Positions 37,339-53,200 of a stretch of DNA of 64,000 bases are shown in pieces. Position 1 is the stretch's first letter. Every line of letters begins with the position of its first letter. The DNA is taken from IMG/VR virus record IMGVR_UViG_3300028797_000006, positions 54,403 through 118,402 of that record; one strand, 5' to 3'. Under the pieces are notes generated by a model, which was given only the letters and a program-made list of their open reading frames with translations, had not been told where the DNA came from and ran no database searches. The DNA is from a virus. Lineage: Duplodnaviria; Caudoviricetes. Made by a program: the position numbers and the translations under genes.

Positions 37339-37414
37339 TGGTGGTCAGACTCAGAGTCGAACTGAGGTGCATGGTTTTTCAGACCATTGTACCAACCGTG
37401 TATACCATCTGACC
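37339..37414 (-). tRNA. tRNA-Phe(GAA)
   Basis: ATGGT-CT GAA AA-ACCAT. Confidence 0.88.
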
Positions 37415-37416
37415 AG

Positions 37417-37962
37417 TTAGATGGAATCTGCTGTAATTCCACTATTATCGCACATTCTAATAACTTTCATCATCTCGACAGGAGTATAATCCCATCTTTC
37501 TACACATAGACATGCGCCATTACGTGCGATTGTAGGGAACATGCCATGAAAGTCCTTTGCGTGCACATGACCATAGAAGTGATAGTCATATGTATCATGT
37601 GAGTTTCCTGGACGCGCATCAGGTCTGTGTGAGAAGAAGATTTTATTCCCTGCAATTTCTTTAATGAATGAAGGTAATACTTCTTCAAAACCGCAATCAA
37701 GATAGAATTGTTTGGACTTAGTGTCGTGATTGCCGCGCACTAGAATTTTATGTCCTTTAAGTCGAGGAATGATCCACTTAAGTGAAGACTCTTGACCGAG
37801 CCCGACATCACCAAGATGAATAACAATGTCGTCATCTGTGACTACTGCATTCCATCTCTTAATCATTGCGTCATTCATTTCTTCAATAGAGCGAAATGGT
37901 CTATCTTCATATTGAATGATATTTTTATGATTGAAGTGAGTGTCGCTAATTAAATAAATCAT
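37417..37962 (-). CDS. calcineurin-like metallophosphoesterase
   Basis: SDTHFNH, HLGDVG, GNHD, GHVH. Confidence 0.88.
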   Translation of the reverse strand: MIYLISDTHFNHKNIIQYEDRPFRSIEEMNDAMIKRWNAVVTDDDIVIHLGDVGLGQESSLKWIIPRLKGHKILVRGNHDTKSKQFYLDCGFEEVLPSFIKEIAGNKIFFSHRPDARPGNSHDTYDYHFYGHVHAKDFHGMFPTIARNGACLCVERWDYTPVEMMKVIRMCDNSGITADSI

Positions 37963-38029
37963 AACTTTCCTTTCTTATACAAATAATTATACCAGAACCT
38001 TTTGAGTTTGTCGATAACTTTTTTCCTTT

Positions 38030-38101
38030 TGGTCGCCGCACGTGGAGTCGAACCACGCTAAGACGCTTATGAAACGTCCGCGATCACCGGATCATACGGC
38101 G
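38030..38101 (-). tRNA. tRNA-Met(CAT) elongator (or Ile2), short D-arm
   Basis: GACGT-TT CAT AA-GCGTC; 1-72 paired. Confidence 0.75.
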
Positions 38102-38103
38102 GT

Positions 38104-38180
38104 TGGCTAGGGCGGGAGGACTCGAACCTCCACAAACACGGGTTCAAGGCCCGTTGACTCTACCATTCGTCCACGCCCCA
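38104..38180 (-). tRNA. tRNA-Gln(TTG)
   Basis: CT TTG-type loop in ACGGG..CCCGT stem. Confidence 0.85.
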
Positions 38181-38184
38181 ATGT

Positions 38185-38279
38185 TGGTACTCCCTGAGGG
38201 ACTCGAACCCCCAACCAGCCAATTATCTGTTGCTATACGGGGTATAAACCCGCCGCTCTACCGGTTGAGCTAAGGGAGT
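38185..38279 (-). tRNA. tRNA-Ile(TAT) with long variable region
   Basis: GCGGG-TT TAT AC-CCCGT plus ~24-nt variable region. Confidence 0.8.
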
Positions 38280-38283
38280 ATAA

Positions 38284-38364
38284 TGGAGACACTGGCAGGA
38301 TTTGCACCTGCGATGATTTACTGAGGTTGCAGCTCAGCCCCTTCGACTACTCGGGCACAGTGCC
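38284..38364 (-). tRNA. tRNA-Cys(GCA)
   Basis: CTGAG-CT GCA AC-CTCAG, U73. Confidence 0.88.
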
Positions 38365-38367
38365 AAT

Positions 38368-38402
38368 AAAAAACCGCTAGACATATTCCTATGCTAGCGG
38401 TT
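38368..38402 (-). terminator. attenuator terminator preceding tRNA operon 1
   Basis: AACCGCTAG-CATAGGAATATGT-CTAGCGG-TTTTTT; its TAGCATAGGAA can instead pair with TTCCTATGCTA in the leader ORF. Confidence 0.8.
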
Positions 38403-38436
38403 GTACCTGATTGTACACTGTTAGTGCCAGTGTTAA

Positions 38437-38526
38437 TTATTTGGTTTTGTTAGCATAGGAAAACTTACACTTCATAAAGCGTGAACTAAGTCTTTGTTTG
38501 GAACATATCTTTAATTCGTTGATCAT
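38437..38526 (-). CDS. leader peptide 1, MINELKICSKQRLSSRFMKCKFSYANKTK
   Basis: AAAGGAGA RBS; codons match operon-1 anticodons; last codons form the antiterminator. Confidence 0.8.
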   Translation of the reverse strand: MINELKICSKQRLSSRFMKCKFSYANKTK

Positions 38527-38995
38527 GTTGTGTTTCTCCTTTGCTAAACGATTATAAGGTTCATTTAACCAACAGACAGTAAGCTTGTAGGGTTCTCTTT
38601 CGAGACTTTGCAGTTGGCACCTCGGGCCTCGCACCGTCCACTGACATAATGCCAGATACCTTACCTATCTTAACCTTACATTATTATTATAGGATAATTT
38701 TTCGATCCTGTCAATAGAATTTTCATAAAAAAATTACCGAGTTATCGGTAATCTCCGGGAATAGATTTTGAGTAAGGCCCCTAAGGTCACTATTCAGTGT
38801 TAACTTTTATGCAGCCGTTAACGAACAACTAGTTATCGTACTAGCGAACTAGAATGGATTTGGGACCATTCATTTACCCAAGAACATATTTACTAGCTAT
38901 CGGTAAAGGCCACTTAGTCAACCCTATTCATTCTTACTCTTATGTAGGAACTCATCCTTTACTATTATGGGGTCTATTGTTAGGCTAGTAACGTA

Positions 38996-39598
38996 ACTGC
39001 CCTTTGATAATTATCTAATGCTGACCTTCGTCATACACGGCTTATTAACTGACATTATTCACACACGTTCACTAGAGTCTGAGGCAAAGGGAGCGACCCA
39101 ATGACTTCTCTAATGGCATAAAGCGATCAACGGGAACAGTTTACTTTGTTCCAACTTTCACCGAGCTTCAGAGCATATTGTATATTGATCGTAACTTTCA
39201 ACGTCGCGGTCAGATTTAACCTTATGTTAAAGCTTCTTCATTTGTCTTTCAGCTACTCGTACAGCCATATTCAGTTATAGGTTATTTCTAACCATCAAGA
39301 CACCGGTTTCCTTTGAGTGCCGGGATATTAAGTTTCTCAGGCTTAATTCCTTAGGCGAGATGCATTACTGCAGTTGCTACTTGTCACCGCTGAATTTAGG
39401 CTTTGCTTATGCGTAGTTAACACGATGCACAACCAACTACATCCTTCACTGCTTTCCCATAGTAGGTTTACCTATAAGTTTCCCGATAGGTTTCTTACTC
39501 ACAATACAGTATCCCATATTGCTTTCATTCTGTAGCTGGCTCCAGGCGGTCCGCAAGACCATCTTCACCTGGTTGCAAAGATAATTATCAAAGAACAA
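38996..39598 (-). ncRNA. large structured ncRNA, ROOL-like (~600 nt)
   Basis: Ends pair (CTTTGATAATTATCT/AGATAATTATCAAAG); own TTGACA-N17-TATAAT promoter; ORF-free and tRNA-adjacent; GGGTCGCTCCC..TCAGACT segment recalled from ROOL RNAs but not verified. Confidence 0.6.
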
Positions 39599-39941
39599 TT
39601 ACAACATTAAGAAGTTTATTTTTCCTTAATGGTATATGTATTATAGAATTTTTCTGACGAGATGTCAAGAAACTTTCCACTAATTTTTGAAGAAGTTTTT
39701 GGTTATAGCCCTTAGGGCAACCTTAAGGCGAACTTCTCGGAAACCTCCAGATCGTTCTAATTGGCAGTAGAACTTATTGGCTAAGACTGTTTGCTACTGT
39801 AGCCTTCCGCTTCACATTGTTTAAGCACTTGTCGCAGCCATACCGCATCTCGGAACTTTTTAGCAAATAGGTATACGCGGCCAATCTCAACCCTATTGGT
39901 AGGTCGGGGTTATAACTCCCACTTGAATAATTAAATATAAA

Positions 39942-40277
39942 TTATTTTCTCTTCTTAGTCAAGGACTTTTTGGCTTTTTCTTCAAGAATTCTCTTGAGGT
40001 TATCCTTGATATCAGCAAGGTAAACATCTTTTGCCGCACAAGTTGGAAGTAATTTATATTCATCCCATAAGTCAGAAACACAAATCTTAACACCACGTGC
40101 GTTGCAAGCAAGAGCAAATGACTCTTTATCGTGATATTTACTTAACAAACCACAAGCACCGACATCAATGCGGCCGACTTTGTCGAGACCGTGCCATAAA
40201 TGTCTTTTTGGACCGTGATGTTTGCGCAAGCGTATTTTAACTGGGGCCGCTGGCTTACCCCCTCTTCGAACTGCCAT
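39942..40277 (-). CDS. basic hypothetical protein
   Basis: Arg/Lys/His-rich N-terminus; own promoter. Confidence 0.7.
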   Translation of the reverse strand: MAVRRGGKPAAPVKIRLRKHHGPKRHLWHGLDKVGRIDVGACGLLSKYHDKESFALACNARGVKICVSDLWDEYKLLPTCAAKDVYLADIKDNLKRILEEKAKKSLTKKRK

Positions 40278-40341
40278 TGTAGTAGTTCTCCTTTCTTTAT
40301 ATAAATAATTATAGCATAACCTTTTGAGTTATGCCACAATT

Positions 40342-40635
40342 TTATTCTCTAATAATGCAACGATCATGGAATTCATCACTACCTACATAGTGAAGTTTTC
40401 CATCAAGAACATAGAAAACTCCTTCGCAACCGTCATATTCAACGATTTGATAATCAGTTGCTTCATCTGGAACCTCTACAACCTTAAGTGTTTCGGCGTA
40501 TCCACCGAACTCATTAATGCGACCGACAAAGCGTCCTGTTTCCACTAATTCAATAAAATCTGGACGGAAACGTGCTATTGCACTGGTTTCACTAATTTTT
40601 CCGTAACTTGTATTTATAACTACTTTCATGCGCAT
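40342..40635 (-). CDS. hypothetical phage protein
   Basis: KVVIN..LKVVEVPD..YQIVEYDGCE. Confidence 0.7.
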   Translation of the reverse strand: MRMKVVINTSYGKISETSAIARFRPDFIELVETGRFVGRINEFGGYAETLKVVEVPDEATDYQIVEYDGCEGVFYVLDGKLHYVGSDEFHDRCIIRE

Positions 40636-41018
40636 TTTCTCCGTTTTTCCGCCACTTCCCTTTAGAACTCCCCAGTATCATTTTTAATACTGAGATTGTC
40701 GAGTTCTTCCTCATAAAGTCTTTCAACTTCGTCCTCATATTCGTCACAGTTCTCGCAGTTAATGTGGCAATAGTAAGAATGTTCACAGTCCATGCACATC
40801 ATCTCATATACATAATCTTCAATGTTAATCATAAAAGTGCTCCTTTTTATTTTCATAGCCGTGCTCAATCCAGCCTCTTATATAATCTTCTCTATTGCTT
40901 TTATTTCTAAGAAGATAGAACCAAGCACTAAGTTTGCTGGTATAAGCCTTTTTAATAACAAAGCCGCCGCGGATTAAATAGCAGCCATAATAAACTTCTT
41001 GCATTTCTGGTTTTTCCA

Positions 41019-41669
41019 TTAATCCCACCAGCTTTCTAAATATTTAGACACGATGCCTAAAAACTTTCTTTTATACTTTTGTTCTAATTTATACATCTTT
41101 TTATGCCATTTCTTGACGATTTTGCGGCTAGATGGATACCATTTTCCGTCTGGTCTGAAACGGTATTCGCACTTCCAATTGCGGTCAAAAATCTTTTCAG
41201 AGTCGTCAAGGTCAATGACTTTAAAATTATCATCACTAATGTGTTGCCATTTATAATAATATTCAAGAGCTTTTGTGAGTGTTTCTTCACGAGTTGGCTC
41301 ATTTTTATAACGGATAGGATCTTCGTCTTTTTGTTCCATAGCGTGAACACCTTCACCGCCATGATAAAAATCCTTCATAAGATTTAAGTAAGTGACGAAC
41401 ATATCCATACCATAGCTCCATTCGCCTGGATGGCTTTCATCAACAATTTTATGAAGTTCATTTTTATAAGCGTCTATCATATCATAATAGCCGTCAGAAT
41501 AATCGCATTTTATTTCGTTGCCGAGAGAATTATATGCTTCGTTAGAAGAACAAGATGGGTCTTCATCTTCTTCATCATCGTGAAGCAGAAGATTCTCGCA
41601 GTCATCAAAAAAGAAGTCTTGTGCTAAATCTTCTTCTGCTGTATCAGGCATTAAATCCATTTTACACAT
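41019..41669 (-). CDS. hypothetical protein
   Basis: 216-aa ORF ending WWD. Confidence 0.7.
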   Translation of the reverse strand: MCKMDLMPDTAEEDLAQDFFFDDCENLLLHDDEEDEDPSCSSNEAYNSLGNEIKCDYSDGYYDMIDAYKNELHKIVDESHPGEWSYGMDMFVTYLNLMKDFYHGGEGVHAMEQKDEDPIRYKNEPTREETLTKALEYYYKWQHISDDNFKVIDLDDSEKIFDRNWKCEYRFRPDGKWYPSSRKIVKKWHKKMYKLEQKYKRKFLGIVSKYLESWWD

Positions 41670-41671
41670 AA

Positions 41672-42052
41672 CTATTTATCCCTTATACGTAAGAATTGAT
41701 CCCAGTTCCAAGGATACCAATCGGTTTCACCATAGGAACGGAGTGTATCCATACACCATTCAACAAATTCTATTGAGCGGCGTCTATTGAAAAATTTGTC
41801 TTCTCTTGGAAGATAAATCATTAGTTCATCACCGATACATTCGGTGCAAATCTGCTTTAATGTTTGTTTTGCGAAAAGTTTATTAGCTCTATACATTAAA
41901 GGTATAAGTCTACGAACTCTATCATAAGCAGTTGCTGGTTGAAGATGATTGTTGCGTCTGTAAGCATATCTACATTCAACGATTAAAAGGTCATACATAT
42001 CTTTTAATTCTATTCTAATTTTAGCATTTATATCCCATTCTAGTGTTTTCAT
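41672..42052 (-). CDS. hypothetical protein
   Basis: RBS before MKTLEW. Confidence 0.65.
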   Translation of the reverse strand: MKTLEWDINAKIRIELKDMYDLLIVECRYAYRRNNHLQPATAYDRVRRLIPLMYRANKLFAKQTLKQICTECIGDELMIYLPREDKFFNRRRSIEFVEWCMDTLRSYGETDWYPWNWDQFLRIRDK

Positions 42053-42063
42053 AATTGTTCTCC

Positions 42064-42456
42064 TTAGATAATGTAGATATCGAGGCAATCAATATAATCT
42101 TTACCAACGTATTCTATTTTTAATTCTCCGTTTAAGTCTTTGCTGAAGTTCATTGGTCTGAAACCACTTGCTTCTATGCGGAAAACTTTATAATTACCAA
42201 ATCTCTTGAGCAATACATTTGTTTCAGTATCAAGAGGTTTATAATGACGAGCATCATCGCAGAATGGATTATTATCCCAATAATCTTCATTTAAGCTAAG
42301 TATTTTATTAAGAGTGTTTCTGCGGCTTCTATCTCTAAAATTATAAGGACTATGAACCTTACGAAAAGACTCGAAGATTAAACAATCTCTATTTGGTTGA
42401 TAAATGCGATAATGTGTATGAGGTGCTAAATTTAGAATGAATTCTCGTAGGGTCAT
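42064..42456 (-). CDS. hypothetical protein
   Basis: ORF with promoter and RBS. Confidence 0.65.
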   Translation of the reverse strand: MTLREFILNLAPHTHYRIYQPNRDCLIFESFRKVHSPYNFRDRSRRNTLNKILSLNEDYWDNNPFCDDARHYKPLDTETNVLLKRFGNYKVFRIEASGFRPMNFSKDLNGELKIEYVGKDYIDCLDIYII

Positions 42457-42514
42457 ATTTTATATACTCCTTTTAATCTATATTAGTATACCATAACTTT
42501 TTAGTTTAGTCAAT

Positions 42515-42905
42515 AAAAAACCTCCCTTAAGGGAGGAAAAGAGCCCCTCTGACTAATACAGGAAGAGAGGCGCAGGCACAACCCTGCTAGCAGACTTACT
42601 GTCTGGAGTTTCCCGGCTTTCTCTTCTTTCTACCTTATGCATTGAGGTTAATTACCTATTACATAGACAAGTACGACTTGTAGCATATGCCTAATAGGCT
42701 GAAGGAGTCCACTGACTTCTTAGGACAGGCCTTTCACCTGCATGTCCCTCCTACTCGATATTATTTCAATCTTTCTGAGGATGCTTCTACGTGCAATTAC
42801 TTGCTGTCAACTTAAGTTACCTAAGAAACAACATTCAGTACTGGGTGGTGGAACATGCGCGCGGGATATCCCCGGGCCTAATAGGACAACTAAGTCCTAC
42901 CTCTT
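42515..42905 (-). ncRNA. putative ~380-nt ncRNA
   Basis: ORF-free; TTGACA..TATAAT promoter upstream; 5' hairpin; terminator CCTCCC/GGGAGG-T6. Confidence 0.55.
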
Positions 42906-42924
42906 TTGATATATAATTATATGA

Positions 42925-43263
42925 TTAATCTTCTGCTTTGTCAAGACTTTTCCTATAATCGTCTAAAAGTTCTTGGGCCTCTTCATCAGAGAAGACAAGA
43001 TGTCTTGAGTTGTCTGGTAAAGTTATCCAAGTACCAACTTCTTGTTCCATACCAATATATTGGAATTGTCCGCCCCATTCGTGATTATATGGGACAACAT
43101 CCCATTCAATAATGGTACAATAGCCGTCAGTACATATATGTATATCACAATAATGCTCGTCACTTTTATTATTATATTCAAAAAGATAATCTAAAAGTTT
43201 TTTATGTAATCCTTGCTCTACTTCTTCTGGAGTAAAAGCCATACTATTATATTCTGTTTTCAT
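42925..43263 (-). CDS. hypothetical protein
   Basis: ORF with RBS. Confidence 0.65.
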   Translation of the reverse strand: MKTEYNSMAFTPEEVEQGLHKKLLDYLFEYNNKSDEHYCDIHICTDGYCTIIEWDVVPYNHEWGGQFQYIGMEQEVGTWITLPDNSRHLVFSDEEAQELLDDYRKSLDKAED

Positions 43264-43274
43264 ATTTTAACTCC

Positions 43275-43574
43275 TTATTGCTTTTGTTTTTGTTTAATTA
43301 AATCATTAACATAATCAACGACTTCATTCCAATCTTGGATGGCTTTATTTTTAGCTTCATCATCTTTAACATTGATGTTATCATAGCCATCTGCTTTAAT
43401 AATTCCGCAGCCGCCACATTCTAACCAATATTCTGTGCAGCAATCATACTCCATATCACCCCATGGGTCGAAGCCTCTTGACTTTATGACAGGAGCTGCG
43501 CCGCAAATTGGGCATGGCTTTCCCACATAATCCTTGTGTTCTAGTCTTGTTTTTAATCTATCTATCGTACTCAT
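43275..43574 (-). CDS. Lar-like Zn-ribbon protein
   Basis: KPCPICG..C..CG..AIQDWN pattern. Confidence 0.6.
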   Translation of the reverse strand: MSTIDRLKTRLEHKDYVGKPCPICGAAPVIKSRGFDPWGDMEYDCCTEYWLECGGCGIIKADGYDNINVKDDEAKNKAIQDWNEVVDYVNDLIKQKQKQ

Positions 43575-43648
43575 AAAACTTATACCTTTCTAATATCTAT
43601 ATTAGTATACTAAAAAAGATGGACTATGTCCATCATATTATTGGTTAA

Positions 43649-43724
43649 TGGTGCGTCTTGAAGGGCTCGAACCTCCGACCTCTACTACGTCAAAGTGGCG
43701 CTCTCCCAACTGAGCTAAAGGCGC
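43649..43724 (-). tRNA. tRNA-Val(GAC)
   Basis: TT GAC GT loop. Confidence 0.88.
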
Positions 43725-43885
43725 ATGAGTGGAATTTTTGGCAGGAACTCCACGAACCGTCAACTATTTTAACCACGAAAGTTTTCACAAAGGATAGGTT
43801 TTAACGCGACCCAGTTTGAGTTGATGAGGCTCCACCTACAAACGGCTGTTAGGACATTACAGCTTTGGGAATCACCCGCCCTACT

Positions 43886-43961
43886 TGGTACTCCCTGACG
43901 GGCTTGAACCGCCGACCCACTGCGTGTAAAACAGTAGCTCTCCCAACTGAGCTAAAGGAGT
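43886..43961 (-). tRNA. tRNA-Val(TAC)
   Basis: ACTGT-TT TAC AC-GCAGT. Confidence 0.9.
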
Positions 43962-43968
43962 ATATATA

Positions 43969-44205
43969 TAATTTCTCTCTGAAGTCTCATTTTTTGTGCA
44001 GCCTGGGCTTCGTTGTTATCTGCACGTTCGTCGACGCCAGGTCTTTTTTATCGCGTCCCTCAATATCACGCCTTAGTCGGAAAACCCCGGCTCGCCTTTG
44101 ATATGGTCTTGGGAACATCCTTTGTTACAAGCAGTCTTCATCTGCAGCCCTTCTCCGTTCTACTACTGTGCACATAGTAAATCGGTAATACGTTGAGAGA
44201 AATTA
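43969..44205 (-). ncRNA. putative ~235-nt structured RNA in tRNA operon
   Basis: Ends pair AATTTCTCTC/GAGAGAAATT; GC-richer interior. Confidence 0.5.
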
Positions 44206-44213
44206 GAAATAAT

Positions 44214-44310
44214 TGGACAGGCTAACGGAGTTGAACCGATGGCCCCTCGAGCGAGCCTTTTATAATCAACCGTATACAATTGATTATAAAACTTACCGTA
44301 AGTTAACCTG
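44214..44310 (-). ncRNA. tRNA-like RNA with 12-bp extended anticodon stem
   Basis: Acceptor-like CAGGTTA/TAGCCTG, CCA end, T-loop TTCAACT, stem TTTTATAATCAA/TTGATTATAAAA. Confidence 0.6.
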
Positions 44311-44314
44311 ATAA

Positions 44315-44388
44315 TGGAGCCGTAAGAGGGAGTCGAACCCTCGACCTTTCCTTGGCAAGGAAATGTTTTACCGCTAAACTACTACGAC
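44315..44388 (-). tRNA. tRNA-Gly(GCC)
   Basis: TTTCC-TT GCC AA-GGAAA. Confidence 0.9.
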
Positions 44389-44389
44389 A

Positions 44390-44463
44390 TGGCACGGGAG
44401 CTACGATTTGAACGCAGATACACAGTTTTGGAGACTGCAGTCCTACCGTTGGACGACACCCGC
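44390..44463 (-). tRNA. tRNA-Trp(CCA)
   Basis: GCAGT-CT CCA AA-ACTGT. Confidence 0.88.
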
Positions 44464-44706
44464 ATATGATGGAGAGTGATTATTTTCGCAGCCCTCTCTC
44501 CCAGGATTTCTTGTGTCCGTTCTGCTAGCCGAGTTTCACGGCATCTTTTATAGACATGTGGACGTCACTTGAAGGCTAAGTCTTGTAGCCCAACGGTTGC
44601 TCTCGGTAATGGCCGTTCCCTGCACCGCCGCTTTTATGCGAGGATAGCGGTACCTCTTAACTATTTTGTTTTTATGTTAAACGGGCGTCACCCCATGCAA
44701 ACTATT

Positions 44707-44792
44707 TGGTGGGTAAAGAGAGACTTGAACTCTCACGACCAACCGGTCAGCGGATTTTAAGTCCGCTTTGTCTGCCATTCCAACACTTACCC
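44707..44792 (-). tRNA. tRNA-Leu(TAA)
   Basis: GCGGA-CT TAA AA-TCCGC. Confidence 0.9.
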
Positions 44793-44805
44793 AATGAATG
44801 GTTAT

Positions 44806-44882
44806 TGGTACCCCTCGAAGGATTCGAACCTTCACTAAATAGTTTTTGAAACTACTGCCTCTGCCAGTTGGGCTAGAAGGGC
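44806..44882 (-). tRNA. tRNA-Leu(CAA), short variable arm
   Basis: GTAGT-TT CAA AA-ACTAT. Confidence 0.82.
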
Positions 44883-44885
44883 ATA

Positions 44886-44962
44886 TGGTCCGAAGCAAAG
44901 GATTTGAACCTTTGATCCCCTGATCCCAAATCAGGTGCATTACCAAGCTCTGCTAGCTCCGG
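44886..44962 (-). tRNA. tRNA-Pro(TGG)
   Basis: CCTGA-TT TGG GA-TCAGG. Confidence 0.9.
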
Positions 44963-44967
44963 ATAAT

Positions 44968-45041
44968 TGGTGGATCGAAGGGGAATCGAACCCCTAGCCC
45001 CTGAGTGCAAATCAGGAAGTTTCCCGTTAGCCTACCGACCC
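44968..45041 (-). tRNA. tRNA-Ala(TGC)
   Basis: CCTGA-TT TGC AC-TCAGG; G3:U70. Confidence 0.88.
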
Positions 45042-45044
45042 ATA

Positions 45045-45620
45045 TGCGCGGTTGTCAGTGGTTTAGAGAGGTACCGTAACCGCAAATCAACCTCTATACC
45101 TACCTTGGCTTTCTCCGCACCCTGCTACTCGCAATAGCCAACCCCGAGTTGCGGCTCAAGTTTCTGGGCTCTCCACCCCGCGGGCACTGCCAAATTCGTT
45201 CAACACTTTCATCCTGTGGTAGTTGCCACCAACGGCTTTATCGGGTGGATAGCCGCAAACCTCGCGTCGAGCATCATATTTCTATGAAGGTTATCTGCAA
45301 CGCACTACCTCGTCGTAGCCCGCTCCTAGGGTTCATCAATGCTTCCTCAGTTTCGGGTCGTTCTGTCCCACGGTGACCACATGGTCTTTATCCTTTGTTG
45401 TGGGTTTTAAGTAATACTGACTTTTGCCACTGGATGGCAGGATTGGCCTGCGTTCCGAAGTCCTAAACCTCGGGTGCTAGATCGGCACTACGTCCAGATC
45501 ATCAGTATTTTTATTTAACATCAGCAGGGCGGTAACCGACGCGCGTCCCTTTCGTTAGCCAGCTTTCATCCGATGACCTTCTAGTCGGTAATGTCTCATC
45601 GGTATCTACCCTCTAACTTT
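45045..45620 (-). ncRNA. ~575-nt GC-rich noncoding tract (one or more structured RNAs) in tRNA operon
   Basis: No credible ORF; many hairpins, e.g. ATACTGA/TCAGTAT enclosing ~100 nt. Confidence 0.55.
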
Positions 45621-45642
45621 TTGTATTGATGTTATAAACTAA

Positions 45643-45719
45643 TGGTGCCCGTTGAAAGATTTGAACTTCCAACCCTTCGCTTACAAGGCGACTGCTCTAC
45701 CGTTAAGAGCTAAACGGGC
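45643..45719 (-). tRNA. tRNA-Thr(TGT)
   Basis: TCGC-CT TGT AA-GCGA. Confidence 0.88.
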
Positions 45720-45896
45720 ATATCGGATTTTCTCTTCCCCGTCGGGCGATGCAATTATTCCGGGCGATTTGTCCTGTCAACACGCCACCGATGACAGACT
45801 CTTTTGGCGTTCTCTGGAAAGAGTAATTTCGAGGGAGATTCACCTCCACGCAGTCTTAATTTACTATTGCTAATAAACTAACATTGCGTGAGAACT

Positions 45897-45978
45897 TAGT
45901 CGAGGGAATGGGATTCGAACCCATGGTCACTGATACTGTTTTAATCCGGAAGCTGCCTTACCACTTGGCTATCCCTCG
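45897..45978 (-). ncRNA. tRNA-like RNA or pseudo-tRNA without canonical anticodon arm
   Basis: Intact acceptor, D and T arms; anticodon region unpaired; ends CTA. Confidence 0.6.
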
Positions 45979-45980
45979 AT

Positions 45981-46055
45981 TGGTTGCCGGGGTGAGAGTC
46001 GAACTCACTACCCAAAGGTTATGAGCCTCAGATGCAACCGTTACACTTCCCGGCG
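45981..46055 (-). tRNA. tRNA-fMet-like (CAT)
   Basis: CT CAT AA loop; C1:A72 mismatch. Confidence 0.8.
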
Positions 46056-46062
46056 ATATTAT

Positions 46063-46136
46063 TGGAGCCGCACAACGGATTCGAACCGATGTCATCTGCT
46101 TGGAGGGCAGAGGTATTGCCACTATACGAGTGCGAC
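46063..46136 (-). tRNA. tRNA-Gly(TCC)
   Basis: TCTGC-CC TCC AA-GCAGA. Confidence 0.88.
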
Positions 46137-46141
46137 ATAAT

Positions 46142-46216
46142 TGGCGGAGCCAGAGGGAGTCGAACCCTCACCGTCCGCGTGACAGGCGGACATCATAACC
46201 CCTAGACCATGACTCC
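46142..46216 (-). tRNA. tRNA-Asp(GTC)
   Basis: TCCGC-CT GTC AC-GCGGA. Confidence 0.9.
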
Positions 46217-46218
46217 AT

Positions 46219-46295
46219 TGGTGGGAGGCCAGGGAATTGAACCCCGAACCTTTGCCTTATCAAGACACTGCTCTAACCTATTGAGCTAGCTTCCC
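46219..46295 (-). tRNA. tRNA-Ile(GAT)
   Basis: TT GAT AA loop. Confidence 0.88.
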
Positions 46296-46299
46296 ATAT

Positions 46300-46374
46300 T
46301 GGTGACCCCGGTCGGTTACGCTCCGGCCGTGTTAGGATGAAAGCCTAATGACTTCACTAGTTGTCTACGGGGCC
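46300..46374 (-). tRNA. tRNA-Glu(TTC)
   Basis: TTAGG-CT TTC AT-CCTAA. Confidence 0.85.
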
Positions 46375-46449
46375 AATTAGTTTTCTTCTTTCTTTTTACA
46401 TATATATTATACGGTAAGCTTTTGAGTTTGTCCATATAATTTTTCTTTT

Positions 46450-46525
46450 TGGTGTGAGGTGCGGGAGTTGAACCCGCATAGCTGGTTTCACAGACCAGTG
46501 AACTAACCATTGTTCTAACCTCACC
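46450..46525 (-). tRNA. tRNA-His(GTG)
   Basis: CTGGT-CT GTG AA-ACCAG. Confidence 0.88.
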
Positions 46526-46532
46526 ATAGCAT

Positions 46533-46609
46533 TGGCGGCCCGTTAGGGATTCGAACCCCAAACCCTCTCCTTAACAGGGAGCTGCTCTGACCGTTGGAGC
46601 TACCGAGCC
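46533..46609 (-). tRNA. tRNA-Asn(GTT)
   Basis: CTCC-CT GTT AA-GGAG. Confidence 0.9.
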
Positions 46610-46611
46610 AT

Positions 46612-46696
46612 TGGTGGAGATTGATGGAGTTGCACCACCCGAAGTTTCCTAACAGTTTTACAGACTGCCCCGCTACTATCTACGGTATAAATCTCC
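46612..46696 (-). tRNA. tRNA-Tyr(GTA)
   Basis: GCAGT-CT GTA AA-ACTGT. Confidence 0.88.
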
Positions 46697-46698
46697 AA

Positions 46699-46896
46699 TT
46701 ACTTATTGCTTAGTACTTTGATATAAAGTCCGCATTGGCATTCGCCATCACCTTGTTCTCTAAACTCCTTACACATACATTTATTTTCAGGAATATGTTT
46801 TAATTTACAAGGACAATAGCCATCATTAGCTTTTAGAGCTTTTTTGACTTCATCGACAATATCCTTATCGACATTTTGTATAACTAAATACTTCAT
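46699..46896 (-). CDS. ferredoxin-thioredoxin reductase catalytic-subunit-like protein
   Basis: GYCPC..CMC..GECQCGLY. Confidence 0.75.
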   Translation of the reverse strand: MKYLVIQNVDKDIVDEVKKALKANDGYCPCKLKHIPENKCMCKEFREQGDGECQCGLYIKVLSNK

Positions 46897-46908
46897 AGTT
46901 CTCCTAAT

Positions 46909-46935
46909 AAAAAAGCAAGGGTTAGAGCCCTTGCT
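46909..46935 (-). terminator. attenuator terminator preceding tRNA operon 2
   Basis: AGCAAGGG-CTCTAA-CCCTTGCT-TTTTT; its 5' arm can pair with the leader's CCTTGTTAATTAGT. Confidence 0.8.
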
Positions 46936-46962
46936 AATTAGTTTTCAAGTGATAAATTGAGA

Positions 46963-47043
46963 CTAATTAACAAGGTTGCTTAAAGGTTCGACATCTAAGC
47001 CGTGAATGGTATTATATGCTACTGTCCACAATACTTTTGCCAT
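46963..47043 (-). CDS. leader peptide 2, MAKVLWTVAYNTIHGLDVEPLSNLVN
   Basis: AAAGGAGA RBS; codons match operon-2 anticodons; last codons and stop form the antiterminator. Confidence 0.8.
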   Translation of the reverse strand: MAKVLWTVAYNTIHGLDVEPLSNLVN

Positions 47044-47059
47044 AACCTTTTCTCCTTTG

Positions 47060-47430
47060 CGTAACGGTAGTAATCGCTTCACTACCAAGCTACCACATCC
47101 TTGCGTGGTTCCAATGACCTGCCGTTTTATAGTCCCCTCGGGTCAATCGAGATAGGGTAATTTTGCTGTGTCGTGCGTCAGGATTACTACAACCATAATC
47201 ACGGTGGCGTTCATTCATAGGGGAATGCATATAGCCACAACCATCACCCGGAAGTTTTCTATGCCTGTCTAGATTAAGAAGGTTACGCCGTCAAAACGGT
47301 TAGTGGAGCCTTCATACTTCCAACTACATTGGTATCTCGCCGCAGCATCGCGCTACTTTATCTCTGCCGATAATTTGTTAGTCGCATCAGTTTAAGCATA
47401 AGTGGTAAATCGTGGCTTGCGACCAATAAG
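47060..47430 (-). ncRNA. ~370-nt structured 5' leader upstream of leader peptide 2
   Basis: ORF-free, hairpin-rich, downstream of TTGACA-N17-TATAAT at ~47455-47483. Confidence 0.5.
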
Positions 47431-47491
47431 ATATATTATATCTTATCTATAATTATTATAGAACTTTCTTGTCCCGTTGTCAAGAGATTTT

Positions 47492-48475
47492 CTACTTTTG
47501 GTGTTTCTTTTCCCAAGCCTCTCTATATTCAGCAGGGATATGTACTTCAAGAGTCTCTCTACTGCGTTCACTTTCGTCTATATTATAAATAACTTCATCA
47601 ATAGTATAGGCAAGGAATTTCCACTCTTCAGGAGCTTCTTTGATTACATCTTGGACATCTTCATAAGTTTTGAAATAGGACATACTGCCGCAATCAAACT
47701 TTGTGCCCATCCAATCTGGTGCTTGTCTTACATATTTAATTTCATAGCGTGTATAGGAATCGTCACCATTTTCATCGTGTAAAAACCTATTTTCATATTC
47801 TTCAAGCATATGCTCTTCTTTATCGAGCAAATCAAACAAGCCTTGAATATAAAGGTTACGGTCATCCTTATCATAAACACTATCACTAATATCACTTACT
47901 TGTTCACCTGTGTGGCGGTTAGTAGTATAACCATAGTCATAGGCAACATAATTACCATATCTATTGATGCCGATCTGTCCATTATCTCCAGTAAAACCGA
48001 AGTGGTCATTTAAAGCCTCCATAGCTTCGACTGCCTTGGTAGCACTTTCATAAGTTCTATCATAGCGTTCAGAGAACTCTTCTTCTGTTTCATTCTCTCT
48101 GCGGTTGACATAATCCATATAGTCATCAACATCACTATAATCGTCGTAAAAGTCTCTCCAGTCTTCAACTTCTACTCTTTCCATAATCTCGACAAAACGC
48201 CCATATGCGGCGATTTCCGCGAGTGGTAAAAAGTCACAGCATTCTAAATATGTTTTAATTTCAAGTTGATTTTGTCTGTATCCACCAATTCCCATTGCGA
48301 CTTTAACAATACAAGGGAAAGGAATACGCAAACCAAGTTTATATTCTAATTCAGTAGAAAATGGAAAGACCATGCGGGCGCAACCTGCATCCTCAGTATT
48401 TAATCCCATAACATAATCTAAGATTATTTTCTCTTGTTCGTGTGTTAGAACTATAATGTTTTCAGTTAATACCAT
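47492..48475 (-). CDS. acidic protein, possibly protein-kinase-like fold
   Basis: GCARMVF..VKVA..NQLE..IMERV..DNGQIG..VAYDYG resemble kinase subdomains. Confidence 0.5.
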   Translation of the reverse strand: MVLTENIIVLTHEQEKIILDYVMGLNTEDAGCARMVFPFSTELEYKLGLRIPFPCIVKVAMGIGGYRQNQLEIKTYLECCDFLPLAEIAAYGRFVEIMERVEVEDWRDFYDDYSDVDDYMDYVNRRENETEEEFSERYDRTYESATKAVEAMEALNDHFGFTGDNGQIGINRYGNYVAYDYGYTTNRHTGEQVSDISDSVYDKDDRNLYIQGLFDLLDKEEHMLEEYENRFLHDENGDDSYTRYEIKYVRQAPDWMGTKFDCGSMSYFKTYEDVQDVIKEAPEEWKFLAYTIDEVIYNIDESERSRETLEVHIPAEYREAWEKKHQK

Positions 48476-48589
48476 AGCCTTTCTACCTTCTTTCTTATAT
48501 AATTATTATACTATATAAAAAAGGCTTGTTCAAGATATTTTCCGCTCAAGCCCAAATATTTTCGCAATTCCGTCTGCCTTCCAAAATAA

Positions 48590-49925
48590 AAGGACTAGTA
48601 AGTAATTACTAGTCCAAAAGAAGGAGGAAAATGAAGAGTAAGAATTACCCTTCAAGCAGGACATTAGGTTAGGAAGGAGGTGATAAATGAAACACCTAAT
48701 GTACTGCTTGAAGGGTAGTAGGACACTTTACGACTCGAATAAGTGAGCCCACCTACTACTCTATTGTACCCATAGTCGCGCAACTATGGTCATTACTTTT
48801 TATGGAAGTGAATTATAAACTTCCATGTATTGTAATCGGGTGGCCGTTGAAGTAATGAGAACCCGCATTAGTCTATTATCCGTTTTTCGAGTGTCGTCCG
48901 TTCCTAATGAAAACCTGTCTCTGTTAGCAGTCCCTGTGCTAACACATGGTCAATAGAACTTACTCAGTCGCCACTGACTTCGACTGGGTGTACCCTGCTA
49001 GACACCATAGCTGTCGTGCTGTTCTTCCCGACATGTCAAGTAGATCGGTTCGGCTACTGCGACTTCTCTTACGGTGGAGAGTACCGGTCAATTGCGTCCC
49101 AACTAACAAGAACGATTAGGTCGTAAACCCAGTATATAAGGCCCTGCGGCTTCATACATTTACGCTACCAGCATGGTTACGAGTGAATAACGGCTCCACT
49201 AGGCGGTCGGGGTTTAATTCATAGCAGGAAGCATCCGACTTGGCTCCTGTCCTACCATCGCAAGCACGATAGGCGGTGTCTCTTTTGAACTTGCGAAGAG
49301 ATTAAGCAGGAGAGTTTTATACAGATACATACCTCTCTAACTTCTGCCTTTTACGATTAGCATCTCACGCCGTTTACGCAGTAAACGGAAACTGGATAAG
49401 ACATCATTTCTTTGGAGCTTGTCTTTTCATTTCACACCAGTAGGGGCCGGTTATTAAGTTCATTTTCTACCCTACATCTTCGCTACACCTTATCTAAATG
49501 GAGGTGCCAACCGTACTGAACATTTTACTTCGCCAGTCAGAAGGTTCGTTCTACTTACGAAGAGAGACTGTGGTCTGCTACTTCGTCATACTCCGGAAAG
49601 ACACATCGGTCGGAATGGACTTACGGGCTGTAAGGTCGCCGTGCCCTGTTCATTCAGTGGGCTCACCGAGCTCATTGTCACCAGATTGCTCACTAGGCTG
49701 GTCTAGTTAGCCATTTAGTCTATTGCTAACTTGTGTACCCATACGTTGAGGTTTCCATGGTCTACGGGTTTAACGCCGTGCCGCCGAACGTCTTACACAG
49801 GCACAACTGTGCTGCGCGGACAACAAGTTGTCCTGATGCTTTACGGACTTACTGCACATCCCAGCGGGGAGTTTGAGTTTAACGACTTCGGGGTCCAACC
49901 GTTCTGGTCAAGAGAAGACAAGAAT
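48590..49925 (-). ncRNA. giant (~1.3 kb) noncoding transcript candidate
   Basis: TTGCTA-N17-TATAAT promoter upstream; no credible ORF; 3' hairpin displaying ATCACCTCCTT; terminator GGACTAGTAA/TTACTAGTCC-TTTT. Confidence 0.6.
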
Positions 49926-50041
49926 TATCTTTCTTCTCTATATATAATTATACGATATATTGTTAAACTTAGCAAGAAATTTTTACAATATAAAGGGGAG
50001 TTTTTAGGAACTCCCCAACCTGATTTATTACTGTCTAATGA

Positions 50042-50527
50042 CTATTCAATGTCACGGACAAATCCGTAGACACCGACTTCTGACTTAGAAACAGATGGGA
50101 CTTCAACCATATCTCCTTTTGAGAGATTGCCTTTCTTAACAAGACCATTGATTGAACCTGAACTCATTTTGTCTCTGCCCATAGCTTTTGCTAAATCAGC
50201 AAGAGTGAATGGTGATTCGATTGAGCTGACTACTTCAAGGATAGCCTTTTCGCCATCAGTGTAGTTGAATGGTTTTCCTTCTGCATTTGAGAGGGCTTCT
50301 GCTGTAACGAAGTTATAGCTGGAAACTTCTCTTGTTGATGGTCTTTCGATTTCTCTTGTACCAATCTTTGCGATTAAACCTTTCTTGATAGCGGAAGTAA
50401 GGTGACCTGGTTTGAATTCTCCGCCGTTAGCGTTTAATTCAGCAAGAGTTAAACCTTCTGTTCCTTTGAGTGCTGCTACGAGAGCACGGTCGTTGTCTGT
50501 ATAGACGATTTCTTTTGCTTTAGACAT
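50042..50527 (-). CDS. tandem winged-HTH protein (phage paralogue family)
   Basis: Two repeats YTD..AL..TLAEL..G..T.LxKKG. Confidence 0.7.
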   Translation of the reverse strand: MSKAKEIVYTDNDRALVAALKGTEGLTLAELNANGGEFKPGHLTSAIKKGLIAKIGTREIERPSTREVSSYNFVTAEALSNAEGKPFNYTDGEKAILEVVSSIESPFTLADLAKAMGRDKMSSGSINGLVKKGNLSKGDMVEVPSVSKSEVGVYGFVRDIE

Positions 50528-50616
50528 CTCGAATGTCTCCTTTCTTATCTTATATATAATTATAGTCTTTGATGGCGACTATGACCAGAGTTTTTTTCAT
50601 ATTAAGTGAAGAACTT

Positions 50617-52759: not shown

Positions 52760-53200
52760 TTAGTCCTCAAGGAATTCGACATCCTCATTGTAGTCGTCAG
52801 CATAATCATAGCCTTCGACGTCCGCATTATAGTTGTCTTCTTGTATCATTTCGTGGATGAAGTCGCCAAGATATTGTTTATAAGGTTTATCTTCTTCTGG
52901 CTTTCTAATCCAACTATCGTGAGTTTCATTCCAGCCATAACCTTCGCTAATGAGTTCATAGCTAATGGTTTCATCATCGCCTCTATCCCATTTCTTATAG
53001 TCTTCATAAACTTGTTCCCAAGTTAAATCTTTAACTGCGTTATAAATTGCGATGTGGTCTCTTGCCCAACTTGTAGTGGCTTCTTTCTCTGTGAAAGATT
53101 TTAACCATTCAACTGTTTTCTTCCAGTCTTCCTCACCGAATTCATTTACTCTTGTTTCCCACACTAATTCACTGCGGGTCATTCTAATTGCTTTGGACAT
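52760..53200 (-). CDS. hypothetical acidic protein
   Basis: ORF with RBS. Confidence 0.7.
   Translation of the reverse strand: MSKAIRMTRSELVWETRVNEFGEEDWKKTVEWLKSFTEKEATTSWARDHIAIYNAVKDLTWEQVYEDYKKWDRGDDETISYELISEGYGWNETHDSWIRKPEEDKPYKQYLGDFIHEMIQEDNYNADVEGYDYADDYNEDVEFLED

Follow-up and report, generated by a model that had tools for sequence, protein, structure and literature searches.

A probable multivalent leader-peptide attenuator sensing tRNA supply ahead of a phage tRNA array

Among the leader peptides of enterobacteria, those of ilvGMEDA (Ile/Val/Leu) and thr (Thr/Ile) are multivalent, and further examples are the trp, his, leu, and phe leaders. Enterobacterial attenuators have the same composition as the phage leaders described here: a promoter, a Shine-Dalgarno (SD) sequence with a short regulatory open reading frame (ORF), an antiterminator that is masked by a terminating ribosome, and an intrinsic terminator located before the regulated genes. 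However, the enterobacterial attenuators regulate biosynthetic enzymes whereas the phage leaders precede tRNA genes, and the regulatory codons are tandem repeats for one to three amino acids in the former and a roster of 13-16 different, mostly single-use codons in the latter. The phage unit further differs from enterobacterial attenuators in being phage-encoded and in forming a reciprocal pair, and the two types of leader have no sequence similarity. The leaders of one of the two phage arrays (array 1) are trp-like, with a region 1 (SD), a region 2 (anti-SD), a region 3 (an SD-like stretch within the terminator arm and loop), and a region 4. Untranslated RNA of the leader of the other array (leader 2) is predicted to read through, whereas that of trp terminates.

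T-box riboswitches resemble the phage leaders in that the status of tRNA is sensed and an antiterminator is opposed to a terminator within the leader, but they bind one uncharged tRNA directly via specifier codon and T-box motif, involve no translation, and control synthetase or amino-acid genes. In the drug-inducible leader peptides acting on transcription, such as those of bmrCD, msrD/mef, and vmlR (PMC4191407, PMC4335068), and in translational attenuation of the ermC type, a ribosome that stalls within a short leader changes the fold of the RNA downstream, as is proposed for the phage leaders. These systems function in Gram-positive hosts and differ in that the stall is caused by an antibiotic together with a specific nascent peptide, not by codon identity, and in that resistance genes are regulated. 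The L-array of Anabaena PCC 7120, a horizontally mobile long tRNA array, is silent until translation is impaired (PMC8421152), and the phage arrays would be like it in being inducible on impaired translation. In a full-text literature search, no account was found of tRNA genes controlled by a leader peptide.

The leader analysed here is part of a stretch of 64,000 nucleotides from a Caudoviricetes genome (IMG/VR record IMGVR_UViG_3300028797_000006), hereafter termed the window. All elements of the leader 2 unit and both tRNA arrays are encoded on the minus strand, on which the order from 5' to 3' is promoter, SD, 26-codon ORF, 14-bp antiterminator, terminator, 65-aa ORF, and 18-gene tRNA array. 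The features are as follows:

47455-47483, minus: sigma-70-type promoter, TTGACA-17-TATAAT, consensus match 12/12
47061-47448, minus: untranslated 5' leader of about 390 nt, with short blocks common to the related genome G001 and absent in the related genome G002
47049-47060, minus: SD region, 12-mer GCAAAGGAGAAA, GGAG 8 nt 5' of the ATG at 47043
46963-47043, minus: leader ORF 2, 26 codons plus TAG, translation MAKVLWTVAYNTIHGLDVEPLSNLVN
46962-46975, minus: antiterminator 5' strand CCTTGTTAATTAGT, last four codons, TAG stop, and 1 nt
46929-46942, minus: antiterminator 3' strand ACTAATTAGCAAGG, final 7 nt identical with the 5' arm of the terminator
46909-46935, minus: intrinsic terminator, GC-rich 8-bp stem, 6-nt loop, T6, hairpin -10.8 kcal/mol
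46699-46896, minus: 65-aa Cys-rich protein (phrog_38239), first gene past the terminator
43649-46696, minus: tRNA array 2, 18 genes (ARAGORN, Rfam, BLAST)
46406-46434, minus: promoter-like site inside array 2, TGGACA-17-TATAAT, 11/12, between tRNA-His and tRNA-Glu
43634-43618, minus: array 2 terminator
38368-38714, minus: partner unit ahead of array 1, promoter at 38714-38686, SD at 38544-38533
38526-38437, minus: leader ORF 1, 29 codons
38461-38451 and 38396-38386, minus: partner antiterminator strands
38400-38374, minus: partner terminator, followed by a T-run; tRNA-Cys is next, at 38364
35878-38364, minus: tRNA array 1 (ARAGORN, Rfam)

Transcription from the leader 2 promoter, one of four perfect consensus promoters that the minus strand, and only this strand, carries within 35-51 kb, is expected to start near 47448. 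The ribosome-binding site (RBS) looks functional, and leader ORF 2 is a candidate for translation. An identical GCAAAGGAGAAA precedes the partner leader (38544-38533), there is no other exact copy in the window, and this 12-mer is the only sequence common to the two leaders; an earlier note on this DNA, which had called leader 2 an independent second copy, was fair in this respect. The CCTTGTTAATTAGT x ACTAATTAGCAAGG duplex has 14 bp including one G:U pair and an energy of -19.7 kcal/mol (p = 0.001 against codon-shuffled ORFs), and it competes for 7 nt with the terminator, whose arms AGCAAGGG/CCCTTGCT occupy 46935-46914 before the T-run. The combination of RBS, short ORF, and terminator, and the pairing that overlaps the terminator's 5' arm, had been noticed earlier and are real. 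The SD of the 65-aa gene begins directly after the T-run, with a gap of 12 nt between T-run and ATG, and no promoter-like site was found between the leader 2 terminator and this gene. The 65-aa protein shows a sub-threshold match to the beta chain of ferredoxin-thioredoxin reductase; a homologue occupies the same position in G001, and 79 of the 80 loci encoding this protein are without an adjacent array.

The layout is retained in nine related leaders, which come from four metagenome contigs and two viral genomes, while the order of the peptide is scrambled. The alternative pairings, which are conserved, would also suit an RNA switch that is run not by the ribosome but by a protein of phage or host, or by T-box-like binding of tRNA; the ORF would then be incidental. 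The long, partly conserved 5' leader ahead of the ORF in the window and in G001 fits with such a switch. Yet the only RNA families found in 38300-50600 (Rfam, E <= 0.1) are ROOL and tRNAs, and a T-box leader model (stem I specifier loop, T-box bulge sequence) gave no match in this region at the same threshold. The 5' leader itself, which matched no Rfam family and was rejected as a structured RNA, its fold stability not exceeding that of shuffles, is missing in G002, whereas SD, ATG, and reading frame are retained in ten of ten leaders despite sequence change. As a switch of this kind also gives the codon roster described below no role, we consider it the least probable of the explanations discussed here.

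Array 2 is composed, in the direction of transcription, of tRNA genes for Tyr, Asn, His, Glu, Ile-GAT, Asp, Gly-TCC, an initiator-like CAT tRNA (45984-46055, with a C1:A72 mismatch), a further tRNA-like gene whose anticodon arm is aberrant (45978-45900), Thr, Ala, Pro, Leu-CAA, Leu-TAA, Trp, Gly-GCC, Val-TAC, and Val-GAC. The tRNA-Tyr gene (about 46696-46612) was missed by ARAGORN and was recognised by a BLAST match to phage tRNA-Tyr genes and by Rfam (26 bits). Leaving aside the aberrant eighteenth gene, the array provides 17 tRNA species, the number given by the earlier note, 16 of which are elongators. Array 1 comprises Cys, Ile-TAT, Gln, Met, a phosphoesterase gene, Phe, Leu-GAG, Leu-TAG, Lys-CTT, Lys-TTT, Ser-GCT, Ser-AGA, Ser-TGA, Arg-ACG, and Arg-TCT, and contains an internal promoter-like site at 38014-37986. 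Units of SD, ORF, and terminator are present only at the array heads and in none of the gaps within the arrays. The promoter-like site inside array 2, which has no counterpart at that place in G001, could drive 15 of the 18 genes independently. Constitutive transcription from it had been named as a possible refutation of attenuation; the site is real, and only the 65-aa ORF and tRNA-Tyr, Asn, and His depend strictly on read-through.

The influence of the ribosome was modelled by partition-function folding with a ribosome mask of 27-33 nt in three footprint sizes, and also with the entire 390-nt leader. In leader 2, an A site at any of codons 2-16 leaves the terminator a probability of <=0.02, and an A site anywhere from codons 19-20 through the stop raises it to 0.9-1.0, the switch point lying at codons 17-20; in the free RNA, the antiterminator has a probability of 0.99. 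This outcome was the same for all footprint sizes and with the full leader included. According to the model, the antiterminator and terminator pairings are thus mutually exclusive and their formation tracks the position of the ribosome. In all array-1 leaders and in leader 2' of G002 the terminator is favoured at equilibrium at every ribosome position, and antitermination would therefore have to be kinetic; because equilibrium folding gives no antitermination in the array-1 leaders, these were additionally folded as transcripts without the terminator 3' arm. By textbook energies, antitermination in trp is likewise kinetic. In leader 2 of G001 and G002, a ribosome at the stop codon no longer covers the antiterminator strand.

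Judged by their sequence, the regulatory codons of leader 2 are not a run for one amino acid but a roster, with little redundancy, of the codons that the downstream tRNAs decode. Twenty-two of the 26 codons are cognate to array 2, among them GCA at codon 1 and an unbroken run of 18 (codons 3-20), and 15 of the 16 elongator species of array 2 are sampled, only Gly-TCC being unmatched, as had been proposed. The leader was also said to be devoid of Cys, Gln, Phe, and Arg codons, which it is, but three array-1 codons had been left out of that account, namely AAA (codon 2), AGC (codon 21), and CTT (codon 23), the latter two sitting past the sensing window. Taken alone, leader 2 shows a modest enrichment within the sensing window, where 15 of 16 codons are read by array 2 tRNAs (p = 0.015); array 2 codons make up 67% of all codons in the phage, and a synonymous-codon test on the array-2 leaders was not significant. 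Leader 1 covers 13 of the 14 array 1 species and has an 18-codon run; 21 of its 29 codons are array 1 codons against a background of 0.33, and 13 consecutive codons correspond to 13 different array-1 isoacceptors. The probability of at least 15 distinct array 2 species in 26 random codons is 3e-4, and one of 6020 26-codon windows of real ORFs reaches this number; the equivalent values for leader 1 are 1e-4 and none of 5939. Among the 510 ATG ORFs of 20-45 codons in the six frames of the window, each leader ranks first or tied-first for its own array, and among the tied ORFs both leaders are the shortest. The reciprocal codon partition between the two leaders is statistically real, as the earlier note, which held chance to be very unlikely, had maintained.

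The partition recurs in the relatives. At the same place in G001, a 41-codon leader encodes a peptide unlike that of leader 2. The first 22 codons past the ATG of this G001 leader are all array-2 codons and represent 16 of 17 species, and its antiterminator shows compensatory changes. In the seven array-1 leaders the set of amino acids (M, I, C, S, K, Q, R, L, F) is constant and its order is shuffled. In G002, tRNA-Ser-GCT is located in array 2' and tRNA-Leu-TAA and tRNA-Leu-CAA are located in array 1'; leader 2' contains four AGY codons, and leader 1' contains none but does contain TTA. By sequence, Ser-AGY and Leu-UUR codons thus change leader where their tRNA genes change array. In the two leaders of the window and in the six other array-1 leaders, the segment of the ORF that forms the strongest duplex with the terminator 5' arm plus loop lies in the last 5-8 codons; in leader 2 of G001 and G002, it ends 4-10 codons short of the stop codon. 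Across the ten leaders, duplex energies are -12 to -21 kcal/mol versus -10 to -19 for the terminators, and in seven of the ten the duplex is stronger than that of codon-shuffled ORFs (p<=0.005). In the array-1 alignment 85% of the cells are paired, a value that drops to 25-48% on sliding the partner columns; at one pair of the helix, three sequences have AU and three have GC.

Part of these data could be accommodated by an ordinary terminated unit for a small protein or small RNA, with the array transcribed from its own promoters and the codon match due to composition or chance. The promoter-like sites within or before the arrays are consistent with this assumption, as is the one that immediately follows the terminator of the leader-2' unit in G002, whereas neither the window nor G001 has such a site from the terminator to the next gene. 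Although the conserved C-terminal motif MKC.FS[YC]A of the array-1 leaders would suit a functional peptide, it overlaps the covarying RNA helix, and the codon class is common to the array-2 leaders of G001 and the window, whose peptides have no sequence in common. Since the two rosters would moreover arise jointly by chance with a probability of about 3e-8, before allowing for search, this explanation appears distinctly improbable.

A closer competitor is a general sensor of translation stress of the erm/cat/bmrCD type, whose broad set of codons would report the overall translation capacity and not the tRNAs of the array. The switch model requires merely a ribosome delayed anywhere in codons 1-18, leader 2, whose free RNA is antiterminated, would also be opened if initiation were blocked globally, and a bacterial tRNA array is inducible by translation inhibitors (PMC8421152). 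A stress sensor, however, would have no reason to exclude the codons of the other array, yet the leaders split the code reciprocally, and the codons follow the tRNA genes that have moved between arrays in G002. We therefore regard this alternative as unlikely.

The array-2-type leader is carried by only three genomes, and the closer metagenome contigs (L118-L122) contribute array-1 leaders only. In G004 and G005, which are related more distantly, arrays are present without an SD-ORF-terminator unit, and the design is therefore not universal. In phiCbK, a matched leader and an annotated terminator are found at two of three tRNA blocks, the third (Glu, Asp) being weakly matched. No relative of the 327-aa upstream gene was present in IMG/VR, DNA patterns for the 5'-leader block, the ROOL 3' core, and tRNA-Tyr matched only two already known genomes, a scan of genome contigs gave only distant phosphoesterase homologues, none with arrays, and a taxonomy search found no cultured relative. 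The contigs of the relatives originate from ruminant and gut samples dominated by Bacillota. In Bacillus, transcription can outrun translation.

In leader 2, the hallmarks of an attenuator come together: an upstream promoter, a short ORF with RBS, a terminator, an antiterminator predicted to depend on the ribosome, and matching regulatory codons, the last in a new form, as the regulated products are tRNAs and not amino acids. Sequence and computation establish these parts, their order, their exclusive pairings, the codon-tRNA match, and its conservation and covariation. With the elements in the right order, masked folding that switches as proposed, and relatives that keep the design, the attenuator interpretation of the earlier note gains support, and we consider it likely that leader 2 is a multivalent leader-peptide transcription attenuator which senses tRNA supply and gates the phage tRNA array. 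We infer for this attenuator translation of the ORF, a functional terminator that opens on ribosome stalling, and a shortage of tRNA as the physiological signal. Transcription would begin at the consensus promoter and a ribosome would load on the strong SD. If all roster codons are decoded fast, the ribosome would, by the time RNA polymerase is making the terminator, be at codons 20-26 or at the stop, and it would cover the antiterminator 5' strand, so that the hairpin would form and transcription would end at 46914-46909. If a cognate charged tRNA is scarce, a ribosome held up anywhere between codon 1 and about codon 18 would allow the antiterminator to sequester the 5' arm of the terminator, and polymerase would proceed to transcribe the 65-aa gene and the array; read-through would likewise result if no ribosome loads. 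The net effect would be a demand-driven negative feedback on tRNA synthesis, and the second, unrelated leader would gate array 1 in the same manner with the complementary half of the code. The shortage could arise because the tRNA pool of the host is insufficient or has been degraded, or through the action of host anticodon nucleases. Because promoter-like sites occur in the arrays and after the array-2' terminator of G002, the attenuator may add to a basal expression of the array instead of gating it.

Why large phages carry tRNA arrays and when these are expressed is debated; current proposals are that the tRNAs compensate for codon usage, replace a host pool that has been degraded, or allow escape from defences that cleave tRNA. 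If a leader reads the decoding speed of the codons served by its array, array expression is demand-driven, leader-peptide attenuation extends from amino-acid biosynthetic operons to genes of the translation machinery, and a new sensor design that accommodates 13-16 inputs in under 30 codons is at hand, which would be of use in synthetic biology as a compact sensor of tRNA availability. For annotation, the results argue that short 'hypothetical proteins' ahead of phage tRNA arrays are regulatory leaders. We see about an even chance that roster leader peptides are a general closed-loop control of phage tRNA genes, each mini-ORF auditing precisely those tRNA species that its array provides, by which only the half-set with slowed decoding is switched on. 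The design would then have arisen repeatedly, as the two leaders of the window share no sequence, a possible trigger would be the destruction of tRNAs by host anticodon nucleases or host shut-off, and the arrays would be an inducible counter-measure, not a constitutive supplement for codon usage. For the rumen-type phage studied here, array tRNAs are probably made only when ribosomes read the roster codons slowly.

The leader-2 unit, built around a 26-codon open reading frame (leader 2) in front of the second of two phage tRNA arrays, is likely to be a leader-peptide transcription attenuator of that array, with a smaller share of the probability left to three rival explanations, namely a non-specific sensor of translation stress, an ordinary small gene plus its terminator, and a non-ribosomal RNA switch. 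A partner frame of 29 codons (leader 1, 38526-38437, minus strand) precedes array 1. All features discussed are located on the minus strand of the window, which is the final 64 kb of an IMG/VR virus record; the record is complete, is 118 kb long and has direct terminal repeats. Read on this strand, the description of the leader-2 locus in an earlier note was matched base for base, and the 17 tRNA species it listed for array 2 were all found, together with one extra aberrant gene. The parts are:

47483-47455 (-), consensus promoter of the leader-2 unit, a perfect TTGACA-17-TATAAT
47060-47049 (-), SD-containing 12-mer GCAAAGGAGAAA upstream of leader 2
47043-46963 (-), leader 2, 26 codons, ATG at 47043 and TAG at 46965-46963
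46975-46962 with 46942-46929 (-), antiterminator strands, 14 bp including one G:U
46935-46914 (-), terminator, then T-run
46896-46699 (-), 65-aa Cys-rich ORF (phrog_38239), starting 12 nt past the T-run of the leader-2 terminator
46696-43649 (-), tRNA array 2
38714-38686 (-), consensus promoter of the partner (leader-1) unit, a perfect TTGACA-17-TATAAT
38364-35878 (-), tRNA array 1

Four such perfect promoters occur in the region of both arrays, and the 12-mer has a second exact copy at 38544-38533 and no others. The 65-aa protein shows a sub-threshold ferredoxin-thioredoxin-reductase-like match. The tRNA-Tyr gene following it was missed by ARAGORN and identified by its BLAST similarity to tRNA-Tyr genes of phages and by an Rfam match of 26 bits, and the CAT tRNA (45984-46055) carries a C1:A72 mismatch, as is typical of initiators. 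The aberrant gene (45978-45900, minus strand; 48 bits), called Leu-TAA by ARAGORN, is composed of normal acceptor, D and T arms and 24 nt instead of a 17-nt anticodon arm; it may be a tRNA whose anticodon loop is expanded, or else a pseudo-tRNA. The unusual length (95 nt) of tRNA-Ile(TAT) (38185-38279, minus strand) suggests an insertion. The phage also encodes tRNA-SeC(TCA) (5845-5941, minus strand) and, directly after the array-2 terminator, a Lar-like restriction-alleviation protein (43275-43574, minus strand; Pfam PF14354, E = 9e-7).

Codon content was judged against the phage's own usage in 27 long ORFs (6695 codons), in which array-2 codons account for 67% and array-1 codons for 33%. Leader 2 consists of array-2 codons at 22 of 26 positions, with a run of 18 and 15 of 16 elongator species represented; leader 1 has 21 array-1 codons out of 29, likewise with a run of 18, and 13 of 14 species, 13 successive codons of the run corresponding to 13 different array-1 tRNAs. 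The match of leader 2 to its array reported in the earlier note stands, except that three array-1 codons (AAA, AGC and CTT) had gone unmentioned. Random codon strings attain the species count of leader 2 with P = 3e-4 and that of leader 1 with P = 1e-4; of the equal-length windows slid along real ORFs, 1 of 6020 and 0 of 5939, respectively, do so. The six frames of the window contain 510 ORFs that start with ATG and have 20-45 codons; for its own array each leader ranks first or shares first place, as the shortest of the tied ORFs, and the two leaders head the 35 ORFs that have an SD-like motif. The enrichment of leader 2 by itself is modest, because the array-2 codon class is common, and the case against chance rests on species coverage, reciprocity and position. 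The longest array-2 run of the window (22 codons) is found in a 29-codon ATG ORF without SD (52760-52849, minus strand), which is probably an out-of-frame or in-gene artefact.

The layout is common to only two IMG/VR genomes, G001 (130 kb) and G002 (116 kb). G001 has the order of the window, i.e. promoter, long leader, SD-ORF, terminator, 65-aa gene and an array opening with Tyr, Asn and His. Its leader 2 (41 codons, MNVWYTEINLGTNPAEGHYDVIG...) is without similarity to the leader-2 peptide of the window; each of the first 22 codons following the ATG belongs to the array-2 class, 16 of 17 species are covered, and the antiterminator (CCTTGTTTATTG with CAATAAGCAAGG) differs in its bases from that of the window with the pairing kept. 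G002 carries both units with the tRNAs split differently between the arrays, Ser-GCT being in array 2' and Leu-TAA and Leu-CAA in array 1' (the prime denotes the G002 counterparts). Leader 2' contains four AGY codons and leader 1' none, and the sensing window of leader 1' includes TTA. At the level of sequence, this shift of codons alongside the moved tRNAs is the covariation that the attenuator model would lead one to expect. The attenuator interpretation of the earlier note receives support from independent comparative evidence.

Four metagenome contigs (L118, L119, L120/L121 and L122) provided additional array-1 leaders; these contigs are partial and were scored with the array partition of the window, which is an approximation. 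The seven array-1 leader peptides (MINELKICSKQRLSSRFMKCKFSYANKTK; MNTRICSKQRLSSRFMKCYFSYASLNK; MTKSICLKSRFSSRFMKCIFSCAKI; MNLVMCSKSFRLSQRFIKCSLSCASK; MTKLISKQFRLSCQRSMKCMFSYASKR; MNGILCMQSKQFRRSSSVYFSVLAK; MTNMISKLQLKQRFCVNTCHFRMPN) preserve the array-1 amino-acid set in varying order. One to four A-rich N-terminal codons are followed by own-array runs of 12-14 codons (binomial p 1e-3 to 2e-6, for leaders that are related and hence not independent). Synonymous resampling with the peptide fixed placed array-1 leaders about two isoacceptors above expectation (p 0.002-0.13), with a coverage of 14/14 in two of them, and was uninformative for array-2 leaders. In these genomes, SD-ORF-terminator units are located at array heads only and in none of many intra-array gaps; there are none in G004 and G005, which are more distantly related.

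The free RNA of leader 2 is predicted to adopt the antiterminator fold rather than the terminator (z = -3.6 versus shuffles). Partition functions were computed with the ribosome modelled as a forced-unpaired, ribosome-sized stretch: P(terminator) stays at <=0.02 while the A site is anywhere in codons 2-16, climbs over codons 17-20 and is 0.9-1.0 from there up to the stop, and the result was the same with three footprint sizes and with the full 390-nt 5' leader. The sensing window of leader 2 therefore comprises codons 1 to about 18 and includes 14 array-2 species, or 15 counting CCT (codon 19, where the switch falls); the foreign codons AGC and CTT lie downstream of it and AAA is codon 2. This geometry would imply a race between ribosome and polymerase, in which termination would need a ribosome at most about 75 nt from the polymerase when the T-run is synthesized. 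T-box identity was rejected for the unit, as Rfam gave no T-box match at E <= 0.1 over 38300-50600.

The strongest pairing of each ORF with the terminator 5' arm and loop was searched with no motif preset. It is located in the last 5-8 codons in both leaders of the window and in every other array-1 leader, and ends 10 codons before the stop in leader 2 of G001 and 4 codons before it in leader 2' of G002. Energies are -12 to -21 kcal/mol for antiterminator duplexes versus -10 to -19 for terminator hairpins. Compared with codon-shuffled ORFs, the duplex has p <= 0.005 in seven leaders and weaker values in leader 1 of the window (0.019), leader 1' (0.05) and L120 (0.2). In the array-1 alignment, pairing in the helix amounts to 85%, versus 25-48% with the partner columns slid, and three pairs show two-sided changes; one of these is AU in three sequences and GC in another three. 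The antiterminator 5' strand of array-1 leaders is an anti-SD (TTTCCT) with two possible partners, the SD of the leader itself and an SD-like sequence within the terminator arm and loop, a choice resembling the four-region arrangement of trp. At equilibrium, the terminator is always the favoured fold of array-1 leaders and leader 2'. When the RNA ends before the terminator 3' arm, P of the antiterminator is 0.5-0.98 at most ribosome positions from the start codon to about codon 16, falls to 0.02-0.47 at mid-window codons of L120, leader 1', L119 and leader 1 of the window, and is 0.00 from about codon 18 through the stop. Antitermination in these leaders would be kinetic, as it likewise is in trp by textbook energies. 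A ribosome at the stop fails to mask the antiterminator strand in leader 2 of G001 and G002, so that timing matters there also.

Several elements accompany the two units. The promoter and SD of leader 2 are separated by an untranslated stretch of about 390 nt (47061-47448, minus strand), which is not present in G002, shares short blocks with G001 (a GTCGCA...TGCGAC hairpin, CCACGCAAGGATGTGG and a hairpin immediately 5' of the SD) and may be an additional input or pause site. A TTATAG(A/T)(A)AAGAT... motif, which folds as a small AT-rich hairpin, forms the first transcribed bases after several promoters (47430-47450 and 38660-38690, minus strand; leaders of L112 and L113) and could be a phage-specific 5' element. 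Further elements are:

46434-46406 (-), promoter-like site within array 2, after tRNA-His
38014-37986 (-), promoter-like site within array 1, before an embedded metallophosphoesterase gene
39596-39002 (-), ROOL RNA (Rfam, 222 bits), just upstream of the array-1 leader

G001 has no promoter-like site after tRNA-His, and G002 has one past the array-2' terminator. The metallophosphoesterase gene (Pfam Metallophos_2; 37417-37962, minus strand), inside array 1 with its own promoter-like site upstream, is conserved in array context in G001-G004 and several rumen and gut metagenome contigs. The ROOL RNA has its own perfect consensus promoter (39668-39640, minus strand) and is followed by about 240 nt of extra sequence, a terminator near 38745 and the leader-1 promoter; in G002, too, the ROOL RNA precedes the leader, and its core contains identical segments of 25-30 nt. 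The tRNA-Thr/tRNA-Ala gap of array 2 (45042-45412, minus strand; 88% identity over 377 nt in G001, 79% over 184 nt in G004) contains no SD-ORF or Rfam family, has a fold stability not above shuffles and is a conserved non-coding element within the array. The region 42521-42944 (-) looks like a non-coding transcription unit, with a perfect consensus promoter, about 390 nt without SD-ORF or Rfam match and a strong terminator (CCTCCC-TTAA-GGGAGG and T-run). About 1.4 kb at 48500-50020 (-) is ORF-poor, extends from a promoter-like site (49975-49947) to two terminators (48654-48592), and gave a single Rfam match, below threshold, and no similarity to the loci retrieved for comparison.

The regulatory logic corresponds to leader-peptide attenuation, most closely to that of the multivalent ilv and thr leaders. 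Unlike in these, control acts on tRNA genes, the roster of regulatory codons is broad and mostly unrepeated, and leader 2 is predicted to read through if untranslated. Full-text literature searches turned up no account of tRNA genes controlled by a leader peptide, and the text of a survey of premature terminators lacks 'tRNA operon' and 'tRNA genes'. The nearest functional parallel is an Anabaena tRNA array induced by translational stress (PMC8421152), in whose text 'leader', 'attenuat' and 'terminator' are absent. The unit would represent a known kind of regulation in a form for which we found no description in the searched literature. If the internal promoter-like sites are active, the attenuator adjusts part of array expression above a basal level. 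In phage phiCbK (JX100813), gp083 (45 aa; Ser, Leu, Pro or Lys at 24 of the 44 positions beyond Met) lies ahead of an annotated terminator and then tRNA genes for Pro, Pro, Lys, Lys, Leu, Leu, Leu, Ser and Ser, an unannotated ORF (MSKTYRQFVRQIQVV...) with an annotated terminator precedes Phe, Val, Ile, Ile, Val, Gln and Gln, and a third leader, upstream of Glu and Asp, shows a weak codon match. The design therefore plausibly recurs beyond the relatives of the window, phiCbK being an unrelated phage in culture whose host is tractable.
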